DNA of 28,025 nt from Alphaproteobacteria bacterium (GTDB taxonomy: Bacteria; Pseudomonadota; Alphaproteobacteria; UBA6615), in assembly GCA_036445355.1 (NCBI GenBank), contig JAZFQY010000151.1, positions 1-28,025 on the forward strand, in the 5' to 3' direction. The notes under the pieces are model-generated. The model was not told where the DNA came from. It was given only the letters and a program-made list of their open reading frames with translations, and ran no database searches. Below are positions 6,685 to 22,237 of the stretch, in pieces. Numbering within the stretch: position 1 is the stretch's first letter; each line of letters starts with the position of its first letter. The position numbers and the translations under genes were made by a program.

Positions 6685-6875
6685 GGCGTGATAGGGTCGC
6701 GCCCGCGTCGAGACAGGGAAGACCGGTGCGGCGAGTCGTTCTCGCCAATCCCGGCGCTGCCCCCGCAACTGTGAGCGGCGAGGTCCCGGCACCAACGCCA
6801 CTGGCCTCGGCATCATGCCGAAGCCGGGAAGGCTGCCGCGGACCGATGACCCCGAGCCAGGAGACCTCCTCGACG
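6685..6875 (+). ncRNA. Cobalamin (B12-element) riboswitch
   Basis: Conserved blocks in order: AGGGAA..CCGGTG, AATCCCGG, CTGCCCCCGCAACTGT, GCCACTG, CGGGAAGG, GAGCCAGGAGACC. Internal hairpins GGCGAG/CTCGCC and TCGGCAT/ATGCCGA. CCTCC (6865-6869) is complementary to the cobU SD GGAGG (6903-6907). Boundaries approximate. Confidence 0.95.
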
Positions 6876-17415: not shown

Positions 17416-18044
17416 GTCTTGGTGATGTACCCGCGATGAACCCCCGCTTCGACTATATCCGCGAGCCGCCGGCCATCTATGAGCGCTCGTTCGAGTTGGT
17501 GCGCGCCGCCATCGACCTGTCGGGGGTGCCGGCGGACCTGCACGCGGTGGCGCTGCGTATCGTCCACGCCTGTGGTCAGCCGGAGGTGATCCGCCACCTG
17601 CGCGCCTCCAACGGCGCCGGGGAGATCGGCCGTGGGGCGCTCGCCGGCGGCGCTCTCGTGCTCGCCGACACCCGCATGACCGCCGATGGCATCGGGCGCC
17701 TGCCGGCGGGCGGGCGCATCCTCTGCACCCTCGACCTCGCCGAGGCACGGCGCGGTATGACCCGCACGGCGGCGGCGGTGGAGCGTTGGCCGCCCTGGCT
17801 CGCGGGCGCGGTGGTCGCCATCGGCAACGCGCCCACCGCCCTGTTCCGCCTCTTGGAGGGGCTCGGATCCGGATGGCCGCGCCCGGCGCTGGTGCTGGGC
17901 TTTCCCGTCGGCTTCGTCGGCGCGGCGGAGGCAAAGGCGGCGCTCGCGGACTCGGACCTGCCCCATATCACGCTGGAGGGCCGCAGCGGCGGCAGCGCCA
18001 TGGCCGCGGCGGCGGTGAACGCGCTCGCGGGCGGAGCGCCGTGA
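17412..18044 (+). CDS. cobH: Precorrin-8X methylmutase
   Basis: IYERSF, RIVHACG, TRTAAA, IGNAPTALF, PVGFVGAAEAK, GRSGGSAMAAAAVNAL; ATGA overlap with cbiX. Confidence 0.96.
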   Translation: MSLGDVPAMNPRFDYIREPPAIYERSFELVRAAIDLSGVPADLHAVALRIVHACGQPEVIRHLRASNGAGEIGRGALAGGALVLADTRMTADGIGRLPAGGRILCTLDLAEARRGMTRTAAAVERWPPWLAGAVVAIGNAPTALFRLLEGLGSGWPRPALVLGFPVGFVGAAEAKAALADSDLPHITLEGRSGGSAMAAAAVNALAGGAP

Positions 18045-19288
18045 CCCCCTGGCTCAGCATCGTCGGATTGGGAGAGGACGGCCTCGACGCCCTCACCCCG
18101 GCGGCGCGCGCCCTGATCGAAGGCGCCGAGGTGCTGATCGGTGGCGAGCGCCATCTGGCGCTGGCCGCGGCGGCGGTGAACGGCGCCGAGACCCTGACCT
18201 GGCGTCAGCCGCTCGCCGACACGCTGGCCGACATTGAGGCACGGCGCGGCAAACGCGTGGTGGTGCTCGCCACCGGCGATCCCATGTCCTTCGGCATCGG
18301 TGTCACCCTGGGCCGGCATTTCCCCTGGGGCGAGATGTGTGTGCTGCCGGCACCCGGCGCCTTCAGCCTGGCCGCGGCGCGCATGGGCTGGCCGGTGCAG
18401 GAGGCGACCTGCCTCACCCTGCACGGGCGGCCCCTCGACCTCGTCAGGCTGCACGTGGCCCCCGGCGCACGCCTGTTGATCATGAGCGAGGATGGGCACA
18501 CGCCGGCGAGGGTGGCGGCGGTGCTGACGGACCTCGGCTATGGCCCCAGCGAGCTCACCGTCCACGAACACATGGACGGCGCCGCGGAAAGATACGTCAC
18601 AGCTATCGCCGAAGGCTGGGGCGAGCGCACCGTCGCCGACCTCAACACCATCGCCATGGAGTGCCGGGCGGGCCCGAACGCGCTTGTGCTGTCGCGCGCA
18701 TCGGGCCTGCCCGACGACGCGTTCGTGCATGACGGCCAGATCACCAAGCGCGTGGTGCGGGCCGCGACCCTGTCCGCCCTCGTGCCTTTGCCGGGGCAAT
18801 GCCTGTGGGATCTGGGCGCCGGATGCGGCTCGGTCGCCATCGAGTGGCTGCGCGCGGCACCCGGCAGCCACGCCCACGCCGTGGAGCGCGACCCGGCGCG
18901 CGCCGCCCTGATCGCCCAGAACGCCGCCGCCCTGGGCGTGCCCGACCTGCACGTCGTCATCGACGATGCGCTCGCGGCATTGCCCGCGCTCGACCCGCCT
19001 GACGCGATCTTCGTCGGCGGCGGCGTGGCCGCGCCCGGACTGGTCGAGGCCTGCTGGTCGGCGCTCGAGCCCGGCGGGCGCCTCGTCGCCAACGCAGTGA
19101 CCCTCGACAGCGAGGCGGCACTGCTCGCGGCACAGTCTCAATATGGCGGCGCGCTGACGCGCATCTCGGTTGCCGAGGTGGAAAAGCTGGGTACGAAACA
19201 TGCCTGGCGACCCAAGCTGCCGGTGACGCAATGGGCGGCATGTAAGCCGTTGGATGTCAGCAGTCGGCCGTCAGCCGTTAGCCGTTAG
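18041..19288 (+). CDS. cobL: Precorrin-6Y C5,15-methyltransferase (CbiE-CbiT fusion); tail runs into a heptamer array
   Basis: GTG start overlapping the cobH stop; LATGDPMSFGIG, GQITKRVVRA, WDLGAGCGSVAIEW, DAIFVGGG, GGRLVANAVT, LPVTQW. Confidence 0.95.
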   Translation: MTPWLSIVGLGEDGLDALTPAARALIEGAEVLIGGERHLALAAAAVNGAETLTWRQPLADTLADIEARRGKRVVVLATGDPMSFGIGVTLGRHFPWGEMCVLPAPGAFSLAAARMGWPVQEATCLTLHGRPLDLVRLHVAPGARLLIMSEDGHTPARVAAVLTDLGYGPSELTVHEHMDGAAERYVTAIAEGWGERTVADLNTIAMECRAGPNALVLSRASGLPDDAFVHDGQITKRVVRAATLSALVPLPGQCLWDLGAGCGSVAIEWLRAAPGSHAHAVERDPARAALIAQNAAALGVPDLHVVIDDALAALPALDPPDAIFVGGGVAAPGLVEACWSALEPGGRLVANAVTLDSEAALLAAQSQYGGALTRISVAEVEKLGTKHAWRPKLPVTQWAACKPLDVSSRPSAVSR

Positions 19289-19303
19289 CCGTTAGCTGTT
19301 AAA
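19241..19303 (+). repeat. Tandem heptamer array, consensus YGTYAGC (9 in-register units, some degenerate)
   Basis: tgtaagc cgttgga tgtcagc agtcggc cgtcagc cgttagc cgttagc cgttagc tgttaaa; contains the cobL TAG (19286-19288). Confidence 0.9.
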
Positions 19304-19329
19304 CGTGATTTTGAAGAGGAAAATCACTC

Positions 19330-19689
19330 TTGCGAGACTTCCGTACGATCAAGGCCTGGCACAAGGCACACGCGCTGGCTTTGGAGATTTATCGTGCGAC
19401 ACGTGGCTACCCGACCGACGAACGCTTCGCATTAATCAGTCAAACCCAGCGAGCTGCGATTTCTATTCCGGCGAATATCGCGGAAGGGTGTGGGCATGAC
19501 TCAGAACGCGAACTCGCGCGCTACTGTCAAATAGCGTCGGGTTCGGCCAGCGAGCTGGAGTATCTCCTACTGGCCGCGCGCGACCTAGAGTACATCTCGG
19601 AAGGTACGCACCAGACTCTCGACACCTCTGTGAATGAGGTCAAACGGATGCTGAACGCATTTGTGAAGACGCTGAAGGCTGATCGCTGA
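19330..19689 (+). CDS. Four-helix bundle protein (23S rRNA intervening-sequence protein / Avd-like family)
   Basis: FRTIKAWHKAH, YP.DERF.L.SQ..RAAISIPANIAEG, IASGSASELEY.LLLA.DL.YI, EVKRML pattern. TTG start with SD GAGGA. About 57% GC counted over 19381-19620, below the flanking cob genes. Confidence 0.93.
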   Translation: MRDFRTIKAWHKAHALALEIYRATRGYPTDERFALISQTQRAAISIPANIAEGCGHDSERELARYCQIASGSASELEYLLLAARDLEYISEGTHQTLDTSVNEVKRMLNAFVKTLKADR

Positions 19690-19719
19690 CAGCTAATGGC
19701 TAACTGCTAATGGCTAACA
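19671..19719 (+). repeat. Tandem heptamer array, consensus GCTRAYN (7 units), reverse complement of the left array
   Basis: gctgaag gctgatc gctgaca gctaatg gctaact gctaatg gctaaca; contains the four-helix gene stop (19687-19689) and the cobI ATG (19710-19712). Confidence 0.9.
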
Positions 19720-20426
19720 GCCCCAAGGGCACCGTCTACGGCATCGGCGTGGGTCCGGGCGATCCGGATCTCATTACTGTCAAAGCCCAAAGGCTTCTGC
19801 GTGAGGCGCCCGTCATCGCCTACCCGGCGCCGCCGGAGGGCGAAAGCCTGGCGCGGCGCATCGCGGCGCCGCACATTTCGCACGGCAAGACCGAGATCGC
19901 CATCCGCATGCCCCTGGACCGCCGGAACTTCCCCGCGCCCGAGATCTATGACCGCGCGGCGGAGGAGATCGGCGGCCATTTGGCGGCGGGCCGCGACGTG
20001 GCCGTTCTGTGCGAGGGCGACCCGTTCTTCTACGGCTCGTTCATGTATCTGTTCGCACGCCTGGCGCGCGATTGGCCGGTGGAGGTGGTGCCGGGGGTGT
20101 CTTCGCTCACCGCCGCGTCGGCGATGCTGGCCGCACCCCTGGCGGCGCGCGACGACGTGCTCATGGTGCTGCCGGCCACCCTCGACGAAGCGGAGCTGCG
20201 GGTGCGGCTGGCGGAAACGCAGGCGGCGGCGATCATCAAGCTCGGCCGCCATTTCGCCAAGGTGAAGCGCATTCTGGACAGGCTCGGGCTCGCCGCGCAC
20301 GCCCGCTACATCGAGCACGCCACCATGGACGGCCAGCGCATCCTGGCGTTGGACGAGGTCGAGGCCGACACGGTGCCCTATTTCTCCATGATCCTTATGC
20401 ACCGTCGCGGCGAGGCGTGGCTATGA
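19710..20426 (+). CDS. cobI: Precorrin-2 C20-methyltransferase
   Basis: YGIGVGPGDPDLITVKA, LCEGDPFFYGSF, VVPGVSS, VPYFSMIL. Confidence 0.96.
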   Translation: MANSPKGTVYGIGVGPGDPDLITVKAQRLLREAPVIAYPAPPEGESLARRIAAPHISHGKTEIAIRMPLDRRNFPAPEIYDRAAEEIGGHLAAGRDVAVLCEGDPFFYGSFMYLFARLARDWPVEVVPGVSSLTAASAMLAAPLAARDDVLMVLPATLDEAELRVRLAETQAAAIIKLGRHFAKVKRILDRLGLAAHARYIEHATMDGQRILALDEVEADTVPYFSMILMHRRGEAWL

Positions 20427-22237
20427 GCCAAGGCGTGCCAAGTGGTGCGGCGGTCGTCGTACTGAGTCCCGCCGGCCTGGACTTGGCGCGGCGCCTGCGC
20501 ACGGCCCTGCCCGACGCCCACATCCACGGTCTGGCGCATCGCGTCGACGGCGCCGACGTGCCGTACCGGGATGCCGCCGAGCACCTGCGCAGCCTGTTCG
20601 CGGCCGGCGTGCCCATCGTCGGCGTGTGCGCCGGCGGCATCCTCGTCCGCGCCCTGGCGCCGCTCCTCGGCGACAAGCACGCCGAGCCGCCGGTGGTCGC
20701 CGTGGCGGCGGACGGCACTTTCGCCGTGCCGCTCCTGGGCGGGCACCACGGAGCCAACGCCCTCGCCGAAGCGGTTGCCGATGCAACCGGCGGCATGGCA
20801 GCCGTCACTACGGCCAGCGAGGCGCGGCTCGGCCTCGCCCTCGACGCGCCGCCACCCGGTTGGACCGTCGCCGACCCGCCGGCAGCGAAGGCGGTGACGG
20901 CGGCGCTCCTAGCCGGCGAGCCGGTGCGTCTCGTGGTCGAGGCCGGCGATCCAACCTGGATCACCGACGCCGGTCCCGAGTTTTCCGACGACGCCCTGCT
21001 CGCGATCCGCGTCACCGATCGCGCGCGGTCGGCGGCAAGAAATGAATTGGTGTTGCACCCGCCGATCCTGGCACTGGGTGTGGGCTGCGAGCGCGACACC
21101 GAGCCGGCGGAGCTGGAGACACTCGCCCGCGCCACCCTGGCCGAGCACGGCCTCGCGCCGGCCTCTGTCGCCTGTGTGATATCCCTCGACCTCAAGGAGG
21201 ACGAGCCGGCGGTGGCGGCGCTGGCGGTGTCCCTGGGCGTACCGGCGCGATTTTTCGACGCCACACGCCTCGAGGCAGAGACGCCGCGCCTCGCCAACCC
21301 CTCCGAGGAGGTGTTCCGCGCCGTCGGTTGCCACGGCGTGGCCGAAGCATCCGCCCTTGCCGCCGCGGGTACCGACGGCGTGCTGGTGGTACCGAAGCGC
21401 AAATCGGCGCGCGCCACCTGCGCCGTCGCGCGGGCCAGGGCGATTGATCCCAAACGGGTCGGCCGCCCGCGCGGCAGCCTCACCATTATTGGCACCGGGC
21501 CGGGCCATGCAAACTGGCGCACGCGGGCGGCCGGCAGGGCGGCGACACGGGCGAGCGACGCCGTCGGCTACGGCCCCTATCTCGACCTCATGGGCGACGC
21601 GCTGGCCGGCGCCCGGCACCACGCCTTCGCCCTCGGCGAGGAGGAGGTGCGGGCGCGCCGGGCGCTGGAGCTGGCGGCCAAGGGAAAACGGGTGGTGCTG
21701 GTCGCCTCGGGCGACCCCGGCATCTACGCATTGGCGAGCCTGGTCATCGAGCTCATGGACCGGGAGCCGACCTGGCGGCGCCTTGCCGTCGCCGTGGAGC
21801 CGGGGGTCTCGGCGATGCAGATGGCCGCCGCGCGCGCCGGCGCGCCCCTGGGGCACGATTTCTGCGCCATCTCCCTCTCCGATCTGATGACGCCGTGGCC
21901 GGCGATCGAGCGGCGGCTCACCGCGGCGGCGGAAGCGGATTTCGTGGTCGCCCTCTACAATCCGCGCAGCCACCGGCGCACGCGCCAGCTTCCCGCCGCC
22001 CGTGACATCCTGCTCGCGCATCGCCCGCCATCGACGCCGGTGGTGGTGGCGCGCGCCATCGGACGCCAAGCAGAATCGGTCGATGTGGTGACGCTCGCCG
22101 AACTCGATCCGGAGGCGGTGGACATGCTGACGGTGCTGATCGTCGGCAACAGCGAGACCCGAGCCTTCTCCCATCGCGGGCGCGACTGGGTCTACACCCC
22201 TCGCGGCTACCCGACGGACCCGGGAGACGCGGCGTGA
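20423..22237 (+). CDS. cobJ: CbiG-CobJ fusion: cobalamin biosynthesis protein CbiG + precorrin-3B C17-methyltransferase
   Basis: N-part: PLLGGHHGAN, LGVGCER, GVAEASAL (CbiG). C-part: GTGPG, GYGPYLD, SGDPGIY, APLGHDFCAISLSDL, LYNPRS, YTPRGY (CobJ/CbiH). Start ATG 20423 overlapping the cobI stop. Confidence 0.93.
   Translation: MSQGVPSGAAVVVLSPAGLDLARRLRTALPDAHIHGLAHRVDGADVPYRDAAEHLRSLFAAGVPIVGVCAGGILVRALAPLLGDKHAEPPVVAVAADGTFAVPLLGGHHGANALAEAVADATGGMAAVTTASEARLGLALDAPPPGWTVADPPAAKAVTAALLAGEPVRLVVEAGDPTWITDAGPEFSDDALLAIRVTDRARSAARNELVLHPPILALGVGCERDTEPAELETLARATLAEHGLAPASVACVISLDLKEDEPAVAALAVSLGVPARFFDATRLEAETPRLANPSEEVFRAVGCHGVAEASALAAAGTDGVLVVPKRKSARATCAVARARAIDPKRVGRPRGSLTIIGTGPGHANWRTRAAGRAATRASDAVGYGPYLDLMGDALAGARHHAFALGEEEVRARRALELAAKGKRVVLVASGDPGIYALASLVIELMDREPTWRRLAVAVEPGVSAMQMAAARAGAPLGHDFCAISLSDLMTPWPAIERRLTAAAEADFVVALYNPRSHRRTRQLPAARDILLAHRPPSTPVVVARAIGRQAESVDVVTLAELDPEAVDMLTVLIVGNSETRAFSHRGRDWVYTPRGYPTDPGDAA

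Follow-up and report, generated by a model that had tools for sequence, protein, structure and literature searches.

How can a gene settle between two genes whose stop and start codons normally overlap by four nucleotides, and what then ends the first gene and starts the second? This question is raised by the cobL-cobI junction in a 28,025-nt stretch of DNA (contig JAZFQY010000151.1, positions 1 to 28,025 of the forward strand, assembly GCA_036445355.1; hereafter the window) from a sediment metagenome-assembled genome (MAG; 1.59 Mb, 74% complete) of a GC-rich alphaproteobacterium. Here, a gene for a small four-helix-bundle (4HB) protein of the PF05635 family lies between cobL and cobI and is enclosed by two inverted arrays of a 7-nt repeat. 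We propose, with moderate confidence, that this unit is a heptamer-armed 4HB cassette of the intervening sequence (IVS) type that resides in an mRNA at the cobL/cobI overlap, that it is an old and stable resident, and that it would couple its neighbors through a stem. The comparisons below establish an insertion with stop codons in all frames of both arms and an ATG in the right arm, its presence in at least nine operons, purifying selection on its gene, and complementarity of the arms despite a change of core motif.

We surveyed cobI loci from 30 genomes of the same family and 80 further loci from other genomes for empty sites, which the initial annotation had suggested looking for. An ATGA overlap joins cobL to cobI in 28 of the 30 same-family loci, and 71 of the 80 further loci have the same tight ATGA junction, with a 4HB gene in none (0/80). 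Because a plain 4-nt ATGA overlap is found at 99 of 110 cobL-cobI junctions in related alphaproteobacterial genomes, the cassette is, on this comparison, an insertion that replaced the ancestral stop/start overlap. Specifically, CobL in empty loci ends in ...V-T-Q-W-x-x-x-K-P/S-stop and CobI begins M-S/T-G-T-V-Y-G-I-G. In the window, native cobL runs to ...TGT AAG CC (position 19248; protein ...Q-W-A-A-C-K-P) and native cobI resumes with AGC CCC AAG GGC ACC from 19719, which delimits an insert of about 470 bp (19249-19718, + strand, as are all features described here) composed of the left array, the 4HB gene and the right array. Its GC content is 54.5% versus 71% for the window, and that of third codon positions (GC3) is 63% in the 4HB gene versus 83-88% in cobL and cobI, which bears out the lower GC content noticed initially. 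The nearest relative (L133; 84% CobI identity) of another genome with a filled junction, G013, has a clean ATGA site and no scar. No target-site duplication was found at the reconstructed junction.

The same junction is also altered in other ways elsewhere. In two Inquilinus genomes (L171 983-1201 and L190 980-1201), it holds a palindromic insert of ~218 nt without a gene, resembling repetitive extragenic palindromes or miniature inverted-repeat transposable elements (MITEs), and in a gammaproteobacterial MAG (L159 758-1201) it holds a GC-rich insert of ~440 nt that contains direct repeats and lacks a 4HB gene. A Paracoccaceae MAG (L173, about 1165-1225) carries four in-frame tandem copies of a 12-mer (GGCACGCTTTCT) directly past the overlap, where they form the CobI N-terminus. 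The closest empty-site relative by cob genes (L012/L126) has a distant PF05635 gene elsewhere (G002:C16:38778-39098; 30% identity), with one in-frame TAG.

How, then, are the neighboring genes ended and started? The arrays were identified by sequence reading, Tandem Repeats Finder and an inverted-repeat finder. The left array (19241-19305; 19241-19303 by the repeat finder) comprises about 8 units of NGTYAGC, which read in order TGTAAGC, CGTTGGA, TGTCAGC, AGTCGGC, CGTCAGC, CGTTAGC three times, and TGTTAAA. The right array (19671-19722) comprises 7 units of GCTRAYN, the reverse complement of the left unit: GCTGAAG, GCTGATC, GCTGACA, GCTAATG, GCTAACT, GCTAATG and GCTAACA. No other sites in the 28-kb window contain high-scoring (54-56) period-7/14 arrays, and in the 1.59-Mb assembly the heptamer unit is not found elsewhere above its control count. 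As the initial annotation stated, each of the three genes has coding sequence that extends into an array. The cobL TAG (19286-19288) falls in a CGTTAGC unit, and the last 12 CobL codons together with this stop (19249-19288) are encoded by the array. The left array had also been said to begin in the CobL codons C-K-P; the overlap with cobL stands, but the first unit, TGTAAGC, is mostly native cobL sequence (Cys-Lys-Pro). On the other side, the final codons of the 4HB gene and its TGA (19687-19689) lie within the right array, as does the cobI ATG (19710-19712), which falls in a GCTAATG unit, so that the first three CobI codons (M-A-N) come from the array. This ATG lacks a Shine-Dalgarno (SD) sequence, in agreement with the initial reading, and no other in-frame start keeps the CobI N-terminus: the next one, GTG at 19749, would lose the conserved G-T-V-Y-G-I-G-V-G-P-G-D.

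Since 7 is not a multiple of 3, consecutive units shift the frame and stops arise in all three frames. The left array has TAG once per frame (19279, 19286 and 19293); in the right array, every frame contains a TGA or TAA and two frames contain an ATG. As read from these codons, the arrays are frame-independent stop/start adaptors that end cobL, end the 4HB gene and restart cobI. Where cassettes lie in other contexts, the stop codon of the upstream gene is usually found at or inside the first units, and the downstream start lies about 13-15 nt past the last unit and has its own SD sequence. The use of an array ATG as the start of a neighbor is therefore special to spacerless junctions.

The 4HB gene (19330-19689, TTG start) encodes 119 amino acids that match PF05635 (E 5e-35, 120.3 bits, cut-off 33.8) and TIGR02436 (E 2e-35, 121.1 bits, cut-off 24), with 2gsc (XCC0516, E 6e-16) and 2rld as relatives in the Protein Data Bank. 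The conserved family motif G-x2-R-x3-S-x3-N-x2-E (PMC3936711) appears as R-A-A-I-S-I-P-A-N-I-A-E-G. A SD-like GAGG (19316-19319) precedes the TTG by 10 nt; it is predicted to be mostly paired in the thermodynamic ensemble (P(unpaired) 0.19), and the adjoining spacer (19319-19326) mostly unpaired. The PF05635 gene is single-copy in the genome of the window. Compared with an 86%-identical copy (L258), its ratio of nonsynonymous to synonymous divergence (dN/dS) is about 0.06 (dN 0.077, dS 1.32), a value by which the gene is under strong purifying selection. The low ratio implies that the 4HB protein is functional while resident at cobL-cobI.

We next consider the pairing of the arms. The best inverted repeat joins the left arm (19266-19299) to the right arm (19689-19722) over 34 nt at 85% complementarity, and alternative registers of 34-37 nt pair at 76%, consistent with the earlier claim that the arms can pair in several registers. 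The predicted arm duplex has a free energy of -59 kcal/mol over about 43 interrupted pairs, compared with -26.8 +/- 5.0 kcal/mol for shuffled right arms. Folding of 19225-19735 (511 nt), a calculation proposed in the initial annotation, likewise gave a terminal stem formed from the arms (z = -3.3). The right arm contains the cobI ATG and the preceding 15 nt, all predicted to be paired, and in the ensemble P(unpaired) is 0 over 19695-19714 except for one base. In this model the cobL TAG would pair with 19700-19702, 8 nt from the cobI ATG, which fits the suggestion that the stem brings the cobL stop close to the cobI start.

Is the cassette a peculiarity of one genome? We searched a large protein collection and found that the closest 4HB proteins (98%, 86%, 69%, 66% and 58-62% identical to the window copy) are all encoded between cobL and cobI. 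Together with the window, at least eight further diverged lineages, at least nine in all, carry the cassette at this junction (filled loci L258, L259-262, L263-265, L266, L268/269, L270/271, L273 and G013). In 9 of 9 lineages, cobL ends at a TAG or TAA that an array unit supplies, and the cobI start is the ATG of a GCTRATG unit in each lineage that shows the start; L270 has its 4HB stop and cobI start overlapping in the sequence TAATG. CobI begins with M-A-N-S from the same array codons in four lineages, and the array-encoded CobL tail ...K-A-I-S is common to three. The intact open reading frame (ORF) and the R-x3-S-x3-N-x2-E motif are kept in all same-junction lineages except G013, a genome from the family of the window, where an in-frame TGA and a degraded motif mark the copy as a pseudogene. 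One weakly placed member of the 4HB clade, P0026 (L267), is exceptional in having a non-cob context; this locus has perfect 35-nt arms (2380-2500 and 2855-2900) built from a different unit, CTATGAG/GCTCATA.

Among close strains, the cassette appears stable. Sediment metagenomes from at least three studies contain it at the same site at about 97-100% identity, and the only structural variants are found in the right array (at 19700-19703; runs X5 and X9): an additional 14 nt (two units, after 19703) in a ~97% identical strain and an additional 2 nt in one contig. The 4HB tree has two groups, {window, L259, G013/L266} and {L263, L268, L270}, and the CobI tree of filled operons shows the same split, with about equally deep divergence between lineages (4HB 55-66% identity, CobI 60-72%). 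This shared split and similar depth fit one old insertion that co-diverged with the operon. The initial annotation had described a compact mobile unit. A discrete insert built like the ORF-bearing IVSs of 23S rRNA is indeed what we see, but the word mobile is doubtful for the window copy, which is single-copy and stable in close strains and whose lineage has kept to one junction while diverging deeply. It has the look of a long-settled occupant, not of an element that still moves or parasitizes its host.

To place the cassette among its relatives, we used a pattern search over one genome per species, which gave 80 loci encoding 4HB relatives. Most of those at about 50% identity or more (Thermodesulfobacteriota, Myxococcota, Acidobacteriota and others) carry TTAGC/GCTAA arms, with inverted-repeat scores mostly of 14-40 compared with 6-10 in a reversed control; a check of PF05635 genes for such arrays had been proposed in the initial annotation. 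More distant clades have TCAGT, TCAGC or ATTAGT cores, and a Gemmatimonadota clade is mostly unarmed. The window cassette has inverted 7-nt arrays, a core common to its closest relatives and the form of a discrete insert relative to empty sites, and is by these features a member of a class of heptamer-armed PF05635 cassettes. No empty site could be assigned for cassettes in other phyla, where the compared relatives were too distant (at most 44% identity). In L268, the core is TAAGC/GCTTA on both arms instead of TTAGC/GCTAA, which indicates that the arms evolve in concert and that complementarity is kept.

Some relatives differ in organization and copy number. In Desulfobacterales and related MAGs (L045-L051, L054, L060 and L102), an extra outer inverted repeat, ACCTGTGCG ... 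CGCACAGGT, lies outside the heptamer arrays, and genomes with this subfamily have several copies, frequently at the ends of contigs (one MAG, for example, has L046, L051, L113 and L122). The genomes of L052, L058 and L057 (G062, G063 and G064, respectively) have 7-9 PF05635 matches each, compared with the single copy in the genome of the window.

Together, these observations suggest a mechanism by which an operon could tolerate such an insert. The cassette is probably part of the operon transcript, because no promoter-like site was found across 18800-20200, in or near it, and it would thus be co-transcribed with the cob genes. In the transcript, the arms are predicted to pair, with interruptions, over about 34-43 bp, in a helix that would bury the cobI start. 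A ribosome translating the array-encoded cobL tail would melt the left arm, and one ending the 4HB gene would melt the inner right arm and terminate 20 nt before the cobI ATG. Either ribosome could expose the SD-less start, and cobI might stay coupled by unmasking and re-initiation, so that the opened helix would preserve the translational coupling formerly given by the lost ATGA overlap. By analogy with rRNA IVSs, in particular the mid-stem cut in Coxiella, the helix, whose length suffices for cleavage, is a likely substrate of RNase III, whose gene (rnc) is encoded in the genome of the window. The 4HB protein probably recognizes the repeated core on nucleic acid: the arms conserve about 4-5 nt of core at 7-nt intervals, in opposite orientations, as would be expected if a multimeric protein recognized a specific sequence, and XCC0516 is a pentamer (PMC4990558).

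Several observations weigh against this proposal. In an analysis of mismatch phases in 28 periodic cassettes, mismatches between the arms concentrate in two of the seven phases (Watson-Crick pairing of 0.43 and 0.63, compared with 0.96-1.0 in the best four), a pattern more indicative of selection on the core motif than of selection for a perfect helix. Across 41 armed cassettes, we found no sense-strand G-U bias (52 G-U versus 54 A-C, p = 0.92), and selection on the sense-strand RNA by wobble asymmetry was rejected for this reason. In addition, the antisense arms fold as well as the sense arms (-56 kcal/mol). Given the lack of a G-U excess and the equal folding of the antisense arms, pairing could matter at the DNA level, or could be a by-product of inverted copies of a protein-binding motif. 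An RNA search returned two runs with a depth of 2 and an unrecorded run kind, and the RNA joints in them (85% likeness, sides shorter than 30 nt) were not trustworthy and were set aside. Moreover, filled and empty operons are interspersed in the cob tree, where the filled ones do not form one clade: an approximately unbiased (AU) test rejects the filled genomes G000 and G013 as a clade (p 8e-36), and well-supported branches require four changes to account for the four filled rows. Such a scatter is explained neither by vertical descent nor by transposition in their simple forms. We saw no enzyme, no target duplication and no sign of recent movement. As the overlap cannot be restored by a simple deletion, the patchiness leaves three possibilities: repeated replacement by empty alleles, site-specific homing, or homologous recombination that spreads the filled allele by way of the cobL 3' and cobI 5' blocks, both strongly conserved. 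Other candidates were set aside. Independent de novo insertion in G013, which the AU test had suggested, was dropped since the closest 4HB proteins share both the junction and the array-derived codons. Precise excision that restores the ancestral site fails on reasoning, as joining at the AGCC repeats or at the array ATG gives no stop/start overlap. In a sliding-window comparison of G000 and G013, CobL/CobI identity is not raised beside the cassette, and co-transfer of the flanks was set aside on this ground.

Three other explanations were weighed. The arrays might act as DNA hairpins or a cruciform in replication, recombination or uptake, with spread by homologous recombination through the flanks or by homing, and with RNA folding incidental. 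Such an element would account for pairing without strand asymmetry, for the scatter of filled operons, and for the M-A-N-S start of cobI and ...K-A-I-S end of cobL being common to lineages far apart on the cob tree; 23S rRNA IVSs, too, recur at fixed helices. We nevertheless consider it unlikely, as flank similarity is not raised beside the cassette, neither recent filled/empty polymorphism nor a linked recombinase was seen, and the 4HB divergence, about as deep as that of CobI, fits long co-descent. Another explanation is domestication, in which the 4HB protein would have been taken up into the cobalamin operon, for example as a regulator or chaperone of cob enzymes or cob mRNA, would use the arrays as cis sites, and would be kept because the host needs it. 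The retention of the cassette at one junction in nine diverged lineages and in every close strain seen, the strong purifying selection, and the deep split shared by the 4HB and CobI trees are all as expected for a domesticated component. Yet about 90% of related cob operons lack the cassette and keep the ATGA overlap, the G013 copy has decayed into a pseudogene, and equally similar 4HB genes with the same arms occur in unrelated contexts in other phyla, which makes this explanation improbable. Finally, the terminal inverted repeats, small size, lower GC content and intergenic site recall a non-autonomous, MITE-like transposon with a passenger gene that is mobilized in trans by a transposase encoded elsewhere. 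We regard this as very improbable: MITEs have multiple copies, fixed terminal repeats and a target duplication, whereas here the gene is single-copy, the unit is not repeated elsewhere in the genome, the reconstructed junction has no duplication, the arms are tandem heptamers of variable copy number, and it is the gene rather than the ends that is conserved. An IVS-type resident of the operon mRNA thus remains the reading that we favor.

The nearest relatives of the CobI protein are from Kiloniellaceae, Pelagibius and other Rhodospirillales-like MAGs. The window holds an aerobic-type cobalamin operon in the order cbiX, cobH, cobL, [insert], cobI, cbiG-cobJ, cobM, and all neighbors within ~3 kb on either side of the cassette are cob genes. 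The flanking genes are cobL (18041-19288; precorrin-6Y C5,15-methyltransferase, a CbiE+CbiT fusion by Pfam and NCBIfam matches), whose start is most likely the GTG at 18041 that overlaps the cobH TGA rather than 17786, and cobI (19710-20426; precorrin-2 C20-methyltransferase, TIGR01467 E 2e-63). Overlaps of 4 nt link cobH to cobL (GTGA, 18041-18044), cobI to cbiG-cobJ (20423-20426) and cobJ to cobM (22234-22237), the latter two taken from ORF coordinates; cobL/cobI, the junction occupied by the cassette, is the sole non-overlapping one in the run. The initial annotation had found no reverse transcriptase, transposase or integrase adjacent to the cassette. For reverse transcriptase this extends to the 74%-complete assembly, which has no RVT_1 match, and the neighboring genes fit the claim as well; transposases and integrases were not searched for as such. 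PADLOC returned zero matches. A cobalamin riboswitch aptamer (RF00174, 83.8 bits) lies upstream in the same gene cluster (6715-6867) and is the sole Rfam match: no family was matched inside the cassette, and no rRNA in the window.

The function of rRNA IVSs and of their S23p/PF05635 proteins has been a standing question since the early 1990s, and it is hard to study in rRNA, where the ORF seems dispensable. In the cob cassette, this module occupies a biosynthetic operon whose outputs (the CobL tail, CobI translation and cobalamin synthesis) are measurable, and its gene is intact and under strong purifying selection. Hypotheses on stem function, RNase III cleavage and binding of the protein to the repeats are therefore testable with reporters. 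The nine-lineage series at one junction is, in addition, a natural experiment in accommodating an insert in a 4-nt gene overlap, and the excess of heptamer repeats that has long been noted in bacterial genomes gains a concrete explanation in a frame-independent stop/start adaptor.

How does the cassette compare with known systems? The Avd protein of diversity-generating retroelements shares the 4HB fold family, with weak profile matches (PF22296 and NF033474; E 6e-5 and 2e-6) that are below both cut-offs (NF033474 28 bits, cut-off 80; PF22296 24 bits, cut-off 40). Unlike an Avd locus, the cassette has no template or variable repeats. Another likeness is to intergenic heptamer repeats, described as TAACTGA in Beggiatoaceae and cyanobacteria (MacGregor, 2015; PMC4679880), as GGGAATC in Xanthomonas and Nostoc (Rehm, 2015; PMC4692102), and as heptanucleotide palindrome sites in Geobacter metallireducens (Aklujkar, 2009; PMC2700814). 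TAACTGA repeats have stop codons in every frame, overlap upstream stops and abut SD-less starts (MacGregor, 2015), and our arrays share with such repeats the period of 7, all-frame stops in one orientation, overlap with the upstream stop, an SD-less downstream start and variable copy number. These papers describe repeats alone, and a term search of the three found no mention of the PF05635 gene family, whereas the cassette consists of two inverted arrays that enclose a conserved gene as one inherited unit. PF05635 genes outside rRNA loci have received passing mention (PMC3936711), and searches with the terms PF05635, TIGR02436, IVS protein and heptanucleotide repeats found no literature that links such a gene to inverted heptamer arrays. 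What is new here is the insertion into a 4-nt overlap with arrays that give codons to both neighbors, the nine-lineage series, the purifying selection, the concerted switch of the core, and the patchy distribution.

The closest counterpart is the ORF-bearing 23S rRNA IVS, known from Leptospira (Ralph and McClelland, 1993, as cited in PMC4990558) and from helix 45 of Coxiella burnetii, where it measures 428 nt and has a 28-bp terminal stem, GACAGAT tandem heptamers, an S23p ORF and no mobility gene (Warrier et al., 2016; PMC4990558). The cassette is similar in size (about 470 nt versus 428 nt), in its stem (28-34 bp across the two), in having heptamers inside its ends and in carrying a PF05635 ORF in the loop, and its 34-nt inverted repeat, at 85% complementarity and a predicted -59 kcal/mol, corresponds to the terminal complementary stem of an IVS. 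Neither has a mobility enzyme, and both occur sporadically at a fixed site in a conserved region of host genes. The two differ in host, as the cassette lies not in rRNA but at an mRNA junction of two protein genes, and its repeats are translated and supply the stop and start codons of these neighbors. They also differ in that the Coxiella S23p is reported to be decaying and untranslated (PMC4990558), whereas the cassette ORF is intact and under purifying selection, and in that RNase III is established to cut the Coxiella IVS mid-stem (PMC4990558), whereas for the cassette such cleavage is a prediction. We speculate, tentatively, that rRNA IVSs could be the best-known case of a wider group of junction-adaptor cassettes, in which a 4HB gene would move together with inverted arrays of the 7-nt motif that its protein recognizes. 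The all-frame stops and starts that follow from a period of 7 and a TRA/TYA core might let such a cassette enter even the tightest junctions while sparing the neighbors, the protein and the helix might control coupling or RNase III processing, and the cassette might persist for long times and pass between related operons through conserved flanks.

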